Part shown: positions 3,001 through 6,000 of the stretch, one piece after another
How the letters are laid out: the number at the start of each line of letters is the position of its first letter
Position numbering within the stretch: the stretch's first letter is position 1
Origin: a virus
Taxonomy: Duplodnaviria; Heunggongvirae; Uroviricota; Caudoviricetes
Virus record (IMG/VR): IMGVR_UViG_2534681674_000031
Location: 1 to 9,866 of that record
Reading direction: 5' to 3' (one strand)
Length of the DNA: 9,866 nt
Position numbers: made by a program

Positions 3001-6000
3001 TGTCACCATTAACGAGAACTGTGGCATCAGGGAAAACTGTCCGCAAACCAGATTGAAGGCGACCTCGTTAAAACTGTGGGCAAAGCTTTCCCCCGGGATT
3101 CCCGTGCACCGGAGCGGTGGCCATCAGGGACCATTACCGTCAGGGTTTATGACGATCAGCCGTTTGACCGGCAAATTGTTATTCCGGCGGTGGCATTCAG
3201 CGGCGCTAAACATGAGAGAGAGCATACTGATATTTACTCCTCATGCCGTCTGATAGTGCGGAAAAACGGTGCTGAAATTTATAACCGTACCGCGCTGGAT
3301 AATACGCTGATTTACAGTGGCGTTATTGATATGCCTGCCGGTCACGGTCACATGACGCTGGAGTTTTCGGTGTCAGCATGGCTGGTAAATAACTGGTATC
3401 CCACAGCAAGTATCAGCGATCTGCTGGTTGTGGTGATGAAAAAATCCACAGCAGGTATCAGTATCAGCTGAATTTTATAACCCAGAACGGGCGTCAGAAA
3501 TGACGCCTTTTTTATTGCAGAAAAGCGAGAGGTAATTATGCGTAAACTTTATGCCGCCATTTTGTCCGCAGCCATTTGTCTGGCCGTATCCGGTGCGCCT
3601 GCATGGGCGTCTGAGCAGCAGGCCACGCTGAGCGCGGGGTATCTTCATGCCCGGACGAACGCTCCCGGTAGCGATAATCTTAACGGGATTAACGTGAAAT
3701 ACCGTTATGAATTCACGGACACGCTGGGGCTGGTGACGTCATTCAGCTATGCAGGAGACAGGAATCGCCAGATTACCCGTTACAGCGATACCCGCTGGCA
3801 TGAAGATTCCGTGCGTAACCGCTGGTTCAGCGTAATGGCGGGGCCGTCTGTGCGCGTGAATGAATGGTTCAGCGCGTATGCGATGGCGGGAGTGGCTTAC
3901 AGCCGTGTGTCGACTTTCTCCGGGGATTATCTCCGCGTAACTGACAACAAGGGGAAAACGCACGATGTGCTGACCGGAAGTGATGACGGTCGCCACAGCA
4001 ACACCTCTCTGGCGTGGGGAGCTGGCGTGCAGTTTAACCCGACCGAATCCGTGGCCATTGATATTGCTTATGAAGGCTCCGGCAGTGGCGACTGGCGCAC
4101 TGACGGCTTCATCGTGGGTGTCGGCTATAAATTCTGATTAGCCAGGTAACACAGTGTTATGACAGCCCGCCGGTTCAGGCGGGCTTTTTTGTGGGTTGAA
4201 TATGGCAGTAAAGATTTCAGGTGTACTGAAAGACGGCACAGGAAAACCGGTAGAGAACTGTACCATTCAACTGAAAGCCAGACGGACCAGCAGCACGGTG
4301 GTGGTGAACACGGTGGCCTCTGAAAATCCGGATGAAGCCGGTCGTTACAGCATGGACGTTGAGTACGGTCAGTACAGCGTCATTCTGTTGGTGGAAGGAT
4401 TCCCGCCGTCACATGCCGGGACCATCACCGTGTATGAAGATTCTCAACCGGGGACGCTGAATGATTTTCTCGGTGCCATGTCGGAGGATGACGTCCGGCC
4501 GGAGGCACTGCGCCGTTTTGAACTGATGGTGGAAGAGGTGGCGCGTCACGCTGAGGAGGCGAAGAAGAATGCCGGAGAGGCGGAGACGTCAGCGAGGAAT
4601 GCCGGCATATCAGCCAGTCAGGCAGAAGAGAGCGCTGCAAATGCTGACACTTCAGCAGGGGAGGCATCGGAGTCAGCCCGGCAGGCGGCAGAAAGTGCAG
4701 CCTCAGCAAAGCAGTCAGAGGATGCGTCCTCGTCCTCGGCTTCTGCGGCCGCTCAAAAAGCCAGTGAGTCATCACAAAGTGCAGCAGATGCTGAGTTGTC
4801 AAAAAAGACGGCAGAAAGTGCAGCCGGTAATGCAGCCAGGGATGCAACGACCGCAACAGAAAAAGCCCGGGAGTCAGCAGAAAGCGCACAGTCAGCGGAA
4901 CAAAGCAGGATAGCGGCGGAAGAAGCCGTAAACCGAATCCCCACAGTGGTGGAGCCACCCGGGCCAAAGGGAGAACCGGGGCCCGCGGGTCCTCAGGGGC
5001 CGAAGGGAGATAAAGGAGAGCGTGGCGACACCGGTCCTGTCGGGGCAACCGGTGAACGGGGACCGGCAGGTGATGCTGGTCCGGCAGGCCCGCAGGGGCC
5101 GAAAGGCGACAGGGGAGAGCGGGGAGAGACCGGTCTGACGGGAAATGCAGGTCCACAGGGTCCAAAGGGAGATACCGGTGCGGCAGGCCCGGCAGGCCCA
5201 CAGGGACCGAAAGGAGAAACAGGTGCGGCTGGCCCGGTGGGGGCAACCGGACCTCAGGGACCGAAGGGCGACCCGGGGGAGACACAAATCCGTTTTCGTC
5301 TGGGGCCGGCGAGCATTATTGAGACAAACAGCCATGGCTGGTTCCCGGATACAGATGGTGCGCTCATCACCGGACTGACCTTTCTTGACCCCAAAGATGC
5401 CACACGGGTTCAGGGTTTTTTTCAGCATTTGCAGGTCAGGTTTGGTGACGGGCCGTGGCAGGATGTTAAGGGGCTGGATGAAGTGGGCAGTGATACAGGC
5501 AGAACAGGAGAATGACATGAACATACTAAAAAAACTTATGCAGCGTCTGTGTGGTTGCGGAAAGCATGATGGCCGTGAACACGTGCAGTCGCTTACAGCA
5601 CAACTGCGACTGGGGCCGGCAGACATCCTGGAGTCCGATGAGAATGGTATTATTCCGGAGCAGGACAGGGTAATCACACAGGTGGTGATACTGGATGCAG
5701 ATAAAAAGCAGATACAGTGTGTGGTAAGACCGCTGCAAATCCTGCGTGCTGACGGGAGGTGGGAAAATATTGGCGGGATGAAGTAACCCGACGGATTCAC
5801 AAAAACCGGAGTCCGGCTCCGGTTTTTGTTGCCATGTCAGGGAGATGTTTGTTATGAAGCCCAGAGGAAATATTTATCTGTATGAAGGAATATGGTAATG
5901 CCTGGATTAGTATCATATATATCATCGACTTCATTCGCGAATGAGATGGCGGAAATGCGTCAGCAGGTAATGGAAGGGCAGATTGGAGGATTTCTCCTGG

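Follow-up and report, generated by a model that had tools for sequence, protein, structure and literature searches.

A small gene behind the collagen-like side tail fibre gene of a lambdoid E. coli prophage encodes a conserved paralogue of the fibre tip

The DNA analysed in this work (hereafter the window) is a stretch of 9,866 nt, positions 1 to 9,866 of the IMG/VR record IMGVR_UViG_2534681674_000031 (Caudoviricetes), and comes from a lambdoid prophage of an attaching-effacing E. coli, where it forms the right end of the tail region. In this window the gene of a collagen-like side tail fibre is followed by a small open reading frame (ORF), whose 89-aa product resembles the tip domain at the C-terminal end of the fibre. 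The question raised by this locus is why a fibre gene should be accompanied by a second, free-standing copy of its own tip. A preliminary description of the sequence had taken the small ORF for a duplicated or alternative tip module, or for a chaperone derived from the tip, and had suggested that recombination at an 11-nt core shared by the two copies might swap or delete the distal tip. The value of the analysis presented here lies in consolidation: the small ORF is a real, conserved and module-linked gene, and no recombination device was found.

Paralogy between the fibre tip and the 89-aa protein

The side tail fibre gene is located at positions 4202-5515 (+) and encodes 437 aa from the ATG at 4202 to the TGA stop codon at 5513-5515, with the same bounds as the RefSeq coding sequence of the closest genome. 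The fibre was matched by the Pfam families PF08400 (3.4e-69, residues 3-135), PF01391 (collagen, 7.3e-18, residues ~254-364) and PF06820 (1.3e-36, residues 365-428). It contains the PfN domain, the coiled coil, the single collagen domain of Gly-X-Y repeats and the PfC (Phage_fiber_C) domain that characterize the EPclA proteins of ~437 aa, and it shares with them the N-terminus MAVKIS (Ghosh et al. 2012, PLoS One 7:e37872). The PfC domain, which comprises residues 365-428 of the 439-aa translation (4196-5512), spans positions 5288-5479 (+) and is followed by an 11-residue tail that extends to 5512. The PfC of EPclA, a knob ~7 nm across, has been characterized as a trimerisation module that re-nucleates the collagen helix, its autonomous trimerisation being shown by size-exclusion chromatography with multi-angle laser light scattering (Ghosh et al. 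2012).

The ORFs were as previously described, with one correction: the small ORF occupies positions 5517-5786 (+), starting with the ATG at 5517 and ending with the TAA at 5784-5786. Its product was matched by PF06820 (1.1e-36) and by the PHROG family 576 over residues 1-89 of 89. BLASTP aligned residues 366-427 of the fibre with residues 29-88 of the small protein (22 identities in 62 positions, 35%; 61% positives; E=3e-11), and the 64-position model of PF06820 was matched end to end by both proteins, with scores of 125.2 bits (fibre) and 125.5 bits (small ORF) against a gathering threshold of 25 bits. This confirms that the similarity initially seen by eye is statistically sound and that the two sequences are true paralogues. 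The definition of PF06820 as the C-terminus of a tail fibre applies to the fibre and not to the small ORF, which is a separate protein with its own Shine-Dalgarno sequence and ATG.

The shared core CTGGGGCCGGC was found, as reported in the preliminary description, exactly twice in the window and in direct orientation, at 5300-5310 (+) and 5610-5620 (+); two matches were obtained in none of 200 dinucleotide shuffles. The first copy corresponds to the LGPA codons of the fibre and the second one to the LGPA codons of the small ORF. The 11-mer is the codon string of the shared (R)LGPA motif and no separate feature. When the two PfC-coding segments were aligned by codons, nucleotide identity was 53% (99/186). 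Among 102 distinct fibre/small-ORF allele pairs from related prophages, the longest shared word measured 7-14 nt, and the 11-mer was present in both copies of only 21 pairs, because the commonest fibre allele reads RLGPGN (CTGGGGCCGGGAAAC).

Comparison between E. coli and Salmonella provided information about the age of the duplication. The small proteins of these genera are 51-60% identical, the fibre PfCs 36%, and the cross comparisons between small protein and fibre gave 29-33%. These values place the duplication before the divergence of E. coli and Salmonella and point to the small protein as the more constrained copy. An origin of the small ORF as an old paralogue of the fibre tip, with no recent duplication, is well supported by these comparisons.

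PfC-like units were also observed in another setting. A 565-aa protein from a Logan metagenome assembly (P0236) contains four tandem modules of ~90 residues, each one ending with a PfC-like VVVLDAD...GILxVRxADGTWxEIPAxKG stretch, and, behind these modules, collagen repeats and another domain at the C-terminus; PfC-like units are thus not confined to C-terminal knobs and may also be internal and arranged in arrays. An exhaustive search for distant relatives with hidden Markov models gave 91 matches, nearly all of them E. coli fragments. Weak multi-stretch matches to proteins with CarboxypepD_reg or SprB repeats were considered unspecific and discarded.

Although presented as new in the preliminary description, the observation itself, the paralogy and both ideas on the small ORF, as a tip reservoir or as a chaperone, are already in the public record (Pfam, RefSeq and the literature). 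The same 89-aa gene is ORF68 of the Shiga toxin 2 (Stx2) phage Sp5, for which the paralogy and the RLGP motif were noted, and a role as reservoir proposed, by Mondal et al. (2016, Sci Rep 6:39036, PMC5155283). In RefSeq the protein is named 'phage tail fiber C-terminal domain-containing protein' by the Prokaryotic Genome Annotation Pipeline (PGAP). The GenBank record of phage phi24B carries the remark 'phage fiber C superfamily; contains a RLGP motif', and a curated record of lambda h434 imm21 (CPT annotators) names the product 'tail fiber assembly chaperone', on a basis that is not stated in the record.

Conservation and translation of the small gene

Conservation of the small ORF was assessed in 80 IMG/VR loci that had been retrieved through the fibre PfC and were, therefore, unselected with regard to the small ORF. 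Downstream DNA was sufficient in 75 of them. The small ORF was carried by all 75, and it was intact in 70. Among the five frameshifted copies, four read as a frameshift at an A7 run located at 5528-5534 (codons 4-6), although the loss of one A was directly seen only in the copy of Citrobacter rodentium. These frameshifts may be homopolymer sequencing errors. A comparable T7 run is present in the fibre PfC (5416-5422); it was observed only in the allele encoding Gly-Phe-Phe, the other alleles reading GLF, GMF or GVF, and one protein (P0220) reads as frameshifted at this run and continues in the frame of the small ORF. Both runs could be places of sequencing error or of genuine on/off variants.

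The ratio of nonsynonymous to synonymous polymorphism (pN/pS) was 0.18 for the whole small ORF. It decreased to 0.084 in the PfC part (residues 28-89; 5598-5783, +) and reached 0.31 in the N-terminal extension of 27 residues (5517-5597, +), which has no counterpart in the fibre. The fibre PfC gave 0.26 in a sample not selected on the fibre PfC. On the opposite strand, a 302-aa ORF (4892-5800, -) matching PHROG 18077 was open in 113 of 128 variants; it was rejected as a gene, with a pN/pS of ~10 over the part that covers the fibre PfC and 0.38 over the small ORF. A second antisense ORF of 286 aa (4425-5285, -) matches PHROG 23612, and one antisense equivalent has been annotated in phi24B. These long antisense ORFs are spurious and have been propagated in databases.

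The signals that surround the start codon were read from the sequence. A Shine-Dalgarno sequence, AGGAG (5506-5510, +), lies within the final codons of the fibre reading frame, 6 nt ahead of the ATG, and a single nucleotide separates the fibre stop from the small-ORF start (TGAcATG). This junction was identical, or differed by one base, in 76 of the 78 loci that contained the start. In the two exceptions (L039:1348-3963 and L061) an IS66-family element with ORFs of 225, 115 and 523 aa is inserted directly upstream of the start and replaces the end of the fibre gene. No promoter-like site was found upstream of the small ORF, which is, hence, probably expressed only late.

The extension is predicted to form an amphipathic helix at residues 3-12 (hydrophobic residues at 4, 7 and 11), followed by a Cys-Gly-Cys stretch and a disordered linker, according to an AlphaFold2 (AF2) model. 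The Salmonella orthologues keep the hydrophobic pattern and at least one Cys. A signal peptide or lipoprotein interpretation of this segment (MNILKKLMQRLCGCG) was discarded by inspection, since the would-be h-region is interrupted by K, K, Q and R, no credible lipobox is present, and Cys14 is replaced by Gly in one Salmonella allele, which leaves Cys10. One position in the PfC part is unusual. Residue 81 (5757-5759), placed in the nearly invariant motif ADGxWEN, is R, T, V or K among close relatives; the equivalent residue is A or E in C. rodentium and Salmonella and Pro in the fibre. It may be an exposed contact residue.

Translation of the gene was evidenced by the proteome of a phi24B virion preparation, available in the supplement of a 2026 phi24B cryo-EM preprint. 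The homologue gp59 was detected with two unique peptides, VITQVVILDADKK and ADGTWENIGGMK, with 3 spectra each, whereas the fibre gave 47 spectra for one C-terminal peptide and 2,267 spectra as a whole. This indicates that the small protein is made and that it is at most sub-stoichiometric in virions. Taken with its conservation, the 89-aa ORF is well supported as a real, translated late gene.

Linkage to the tip and the role of the small protein

The distribution of the gene was analysed in 2.9 million IMG/VR contigs, where 278 small-ORF loci and 284 fibre-PfC loci were found. The small ORF is located behind at least four different shafts, and behind every PfC-tipped fibre examined. These include EPclA, as in the window, and the EPclB of the 933W/phi24B type, which belongs to short-tailed Stx2 phages. 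In Salmonella it follows two further shafts, namely a fibre with PfN, Pf2 and PfC that lacks collagen and a 212-aa PfC-ended protein; there, the fibre gene and the small ORF have 14-23 nt in common, again with a hairpin and effector genes downstream. The unit formed by fibre PfC, small PfC and terminator is, therefore, shared by long-tailed lambdoid phages and short-tailed Stx phages of E. coli, and occurs also in E. albertii, C. rodentium and Salmonella, with type III effector cargo usually beginning right behind it. Lambda stf has the PfN shaft start in common with these fibres, carries another tip and is followed by the tail fibre assembly gene tfa (PF02413). Comparison of both arrangements shows that the kind of gene found downstream goes with the tip, and not with the shaft, as is known of Tfa genes. 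Among 5,426 complete E. coli genomes, 698 carry the small gene, and the median copy number in these is 10.

The reading that we favour, at only a little short of an even chance, is that the small ORF encodes a tip-specific accessory protein of PfC-tipped fibres, which would act on or with the tip through PfC-PfC contact, as a Tfa analogue outside the Tfa family. The small protein would be made in step with the fibre through coupled translation and would contact the PfC knob of the fibre by like-with-like surfaces; it might then help in the assembly or stability of the tip, or cap a fraction of the tips. The slot and logic would be those of lambda Tfa or Mu U, fulfilled by an unrelated protein derived from the tip itself. 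The sub-stoichiometry found in phi24B fits either an assembly factor or a partial cap. Since the gene is dispensable for infection of K-12 in the laboratory, the role would be auxiliary or specific for certain hosts or conditions. In a broader form this proposal is held more tentatively: the small PfC proteins may be an uncharacterised class of tail-fibre accessory protein, tip paralogues docking like on like as assembly helpers or as facultative distal caps that alter the binding of lateral fibres on natural hosts, and fixed in effector-carrying prophages of attaching-effacing pathogens and of Salmonella.

Several observations weigh against this interpretation. The contact between the small protein and the fibre is inferred, and the small ORF has no sequence similarity to any Tfa family. 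Both recombinant EPclA and the isolated PfC form trimers and refold in the absence of the small protein (Ghosh et al. 2012). ORF68 was listed as non-essential among the late genes of Sp5, where the fibre gene ORF67 is essential (Mondal et al. 2016, PMC5155283), on the basis of +/- assays of plaque formation and lysogenisation with K-12, which suggests that the small protein is no obligatory chaperone. The mass-spectrometry signal of gp59 is weak and could be carry-over, and the pN/pS values come from pooled pairwise comparisons, and not from tree-based tests, of multi-copy prophage genes that recombine. Structure prediction was also of limited help. With a broader alignment, AF2 gave five models of the small ORF, of which a single one was confident, with a predicted local distance difference test (pLDDT) score of 76 (~90 over residues 31-80) against ~43 for the others, and the model of the fibre PfC failed (pLDDT 53). 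The confident model consists of a helix (residues 3-12), a disordered segment (14-22) and six strands (30-84). Sequence searches of the PDB with PfC detected no similarity to any chain, and the resemblance of modelled PfC to other phage tail-fibre domains is a lead and not a result. As for the chaperone derived from the tip that was suggested in the preliminary description, a chaperone or partner of this origin is still the most plausible role, although a strict chaperone function disagrees with the autonomous trimerisation of EPclA and PfC and with the infectivity of Sp5 lacking ORF68.

The alternative proposed by Mondal et al. (2016), and again in the preliminary description, is that the small ORF is a silent cassette, a spare tip that can be recombined onto the fibre to change its specificity. 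The direct orientation of the copies and their shared microhomology agree with it, as does the median of 10 gene copies per carrying genome, which offers many recombination partners. A natural product of this kind does exist. In the 343-aa protein P0266 the collagen of the shaft stops after 36 residues and the reading frame continues with the PfC of the small ORF ('...GERGPA|DILESD...'), which shows that this PfC can occupy the C-terminus of a fibre; together with the related fragments P0060, P0265 and P0267, this fusion comes from at least 2-3 assemblies. A reverse chimera (P0176) was also found, as were deletions that connect the small ORF with J, Lom or CII. Fusion of the small ORF to a fibre does occur in related prophages, rarely, but not through the 11-mer: the DNA junction of P0266 lies at 7 nt of microhomology (CCGGCAG) that the small ORF shares with a run of collagen Gly-Pro-Ala codons, and this CCGGCAG is part of the second 11-mer copy and also the junction in P0060. 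This fusion has lost most of the collagen shaft in addition. Most of the chimeras and deletions are singletons, which may be mis-assemblies of near-identical prophages, and as a whole they look like prophage decay or mis-assembly and not like a switching device. The junction that a crossover at the 11-mer would create, TTYCGTCTGGGGCCGGCAGAYATCCT, had no exact match in the 2.9 million IMG/VR contigs (~280 such loci), and a core of 11 nt is far shorter than the ~20-30 bp generally regarded as necessary for recombination by RecA in E. coli. With shared words of only 7-14 nt and an 11-mer confined to some alleles, recombination at this core was discarded as a mechanism. Gene conversion between the copies was rejected too, given their low nucleotide identity and the lack of conversion tracts in the 102 allele pairs. 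Neither is the programmed, swappable tip envisaged earlier borne out by the window, where no invertase, recombinase or reverse transcriptase ORFs and no inverted repeats or diversity-generating machinery were found. Moreover, the supposed reservoir is a single cassette that is less variable than the expressed copy (pN 0.011 versus ~0.024-0.027) and keeps its own Shine-Dalgarno sequence, ATG and conserved non-homologous N-terminus, besides being translated. We consider a reservoir function improbable.

A further idea is that the small ORF is the decaying, functionless 3' end of a former fibre, which stayed in place when recombination supplied a new tip upstream of it. Non-essentiality (Mondal et al. 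2016), the five frameshifted copies in 75 (four of them at the A7 run) and the deletions of degraded prophages that often end inside the small ORF (P0068, P0089, P0116 and P0025) would be expected of such a relic, but not a purifying selection that is strong, and stronger than that on the fibre tip, nor an ORF and start context conserved from E. coli to Salmonella, translation, or an N-terminal extension that does not derive from a fibre. This reading is already largely refuted, and we give it hardly any weight. An equally slight chance is assigned to recoding, in which a minor, longer isoform of the fibre, fused to the small ORF, would arise from a +1 frameshift at the stop codon of the fibre gene (GAA TGA C ATG) or from slippage at the T7 run. 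The frame of the small ORF is indeed open for 44 codons upstream, from 5385, and the search database of the phi24B authors included two fusion models with which the gp59 peptides are formally compatible. However, Mondal et al. (2016) found no frameshift signal, the codon ahead of the stop, GAA, is no slippery one, the T7 run is allele-specific and a shift there would halve the PfC, and the overlapping genes of Salmonella are arranged differently; the part of the phi24B proteome that was examined contains no junction peptide either, which is a weak argument. The combination of conserved slippery site and fusion product that defines programmed frameshifting of the lambda G/GT type was not found. 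Finally, the small protein could be an independent soluble knob, a free PfC that binds the ligand of the tip, or another ligand of the host or the gut, away from the virion, as a decoy against debris or lysogens or in some other role at surfaces. The higher conservation of the small protein across genera than that of the fibre tip (the 51-60% versus 36% given above), as expected of a protein with a conserved partner, its dispensability for plaques, its sub-stoichiometry in virions and the single hypervariable site at residue 81 in an otherwise fixed domain are in agreement with this possibility. Its lack of a signal peptide or credible lipobox, with an N-terminal helix interrupted by charged or polar residues, and of a promoter-like site of its own, which makes late expression the only probable one, are not. 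We regard it as unlikely, and an accessory protein that acts on the tip is retained as the favoured role.

Neighbouring genes and comparison with known systems

The gene order in the window is J (four ORFs), lom, side tail fibre, 89-aa ORF, terminator and type III effector genes. The tail-tip gene J, a single gene of 3,480 nt in the closest complete genome, is split into ORFs at 1-300, 297-1835, 1856-3253 and 3076-3471. The window is 89.8% identical to that genome overall, with 113 gap positions, and 98% identical across 3400-7300; broken J and low identity reflect either a defective prophage or an error-rich assembly. The lom gene (3538-4137) is followed by a terminator-like hairpin (4164-4185). 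A second hairpin terminator lies 3' of the small ORF at 5799-5830 (+), with the GC core CCGGAG/CTCCGG followed by TTTTTGTT. Its predicted fold of -29.6 kcal/mol (z = -4.6) was equalled by none of 200 shuffles, and an exact 27-mer of it is present in 113 IMG/VR stretches. It ends the fibre/small-ORF pair before the effector cargo, and a similar hairpin is located behind the Salmonella small ORFs. PGAP assigns 5788-5856 of the window (L280:5889-5957), i.e. 69 nt after the small ORF that include the hairpin, to a fragmentary pseudogene ('tail assembly protein'). A link of this fragment to lambda tfa was discarded, since a blastn comparison between lambda 18900-23200 (lom, stf and tfa) and the complete window gave matches only in lom and the 5' part of the fibre gene, with no match downstream of the small ORF.

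The first NleG-family type III effector gene (5892-6479, +; PF06416, 2.1e-43; identified also by the annotation of the closest genome) lies outside the module and is given as context only. It is an intact 195-aa ORF in the window and is annotated as frameshifted in the closest genome. It opens a dense effector island (5892-9866) which, according to the closest annotated genome, contains further NleG-family genes at 6547-7182 and 8443-9093 (-), EspW at 7310-8368 (-) and the start of a 'bfpT-regulated chaperone' gene at 9276-9866. In many related prophages an NleG gene is flanked by direct repeats formed by three blocks with a span of ~170 nt and 88-96% identity, which correspond to the last ~100 nt of the small ORF, the terminator and ~35 nt beyond, at a spacing of ~868 nt (L085:3569-3742 and 4445-4610; also L086, L119, L123, L128, L140, L150, L153, L159, L163, L165, L168, L169, L176, L177 and L183). 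Other loci retain just a 3' remnant of the small ORF (residues 67-89) ahead of the terminator. Effector cargo seems to have been joined repeatedly at the 3' end of the small ORF.

Collagen-like fibres sit on phages that move Shiga toxin and type III effectors, and the fibre is essential for the infectivity of Sp5. If the small protein modulates the tip, it would bear on the host range of these Stx and effector phages and provide an example of an accessory factor that evolved from the very domain that it serves.

The invertible segments Mu G and P1 C and the diversity-generating retroelements likewise have two alternative tip-like coding sequences near each other where a fibre gene ends. Unlike these systems, the copies in the window are direct, lack long flanking repeats (the sole repeat is a direct 27-nt stretch with 74% identity), and the second one is a full gene that has a start of its own, so that the features of an invertible or retroelement-driven tip switch are not present. 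A published study of the Gifsy-1 Stf was set aside as irrelevant for comparison, that fibre having a tip of the Ur-lambda type. A structural match between the confident small-ORF model, one of five, and the Mu tail fibre protein S (PDB 5YVQ and 8JU3) suggests a possible likeness, with no sequence similarity to any PDB chain. The closest parallel in gene position is provided by the Tfa-like proteins (lambda Tfa, Mu U and P2 G; PF02413). The small ORF lies directly downstream of the fibre gene, where lambda has tfa, and is co-inherited with the tip domain. The possibility of a known Tfa protein, which the preliminary description had named as one outcome that would undo its proposal, was dismissed: the small ORF matched neither Caudo_TAP nor any other Tfa model at E<=1 in Pfam, and none in NCBIfam, while lambda Tfa scored 2.8e-43 in the same test. 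It also differs from Tfa in being a paralogue of the tip itself; trimerisation of the fibre in vitro does not need the small protein (Ghosh et al. 2012), and the gene is listed as non-essential in Sp5. The PfC of EPclA belongs to the same Pfam domain, and the fibre of the window is itself an EPclA; compared with that PfC, the small protein has no shaft, carries a different N-terminal extension and is 35% identical, and no mention of it is made by Ghosh et al. (2012). Finally, Sp5 ORF68, phi24B gp59 and the RefSeq protein are the same gene as that of the window, with 89 aa, 92-100% identity and the same location directly behind a collagen-like fibre gene; in the window this gene belongs to a long-tailed lambdoid prophage and follows a 437-aa EPclA, whereas in Sp5 and phi24B it follows the 645-aa EPclB of a short-tailed phage.

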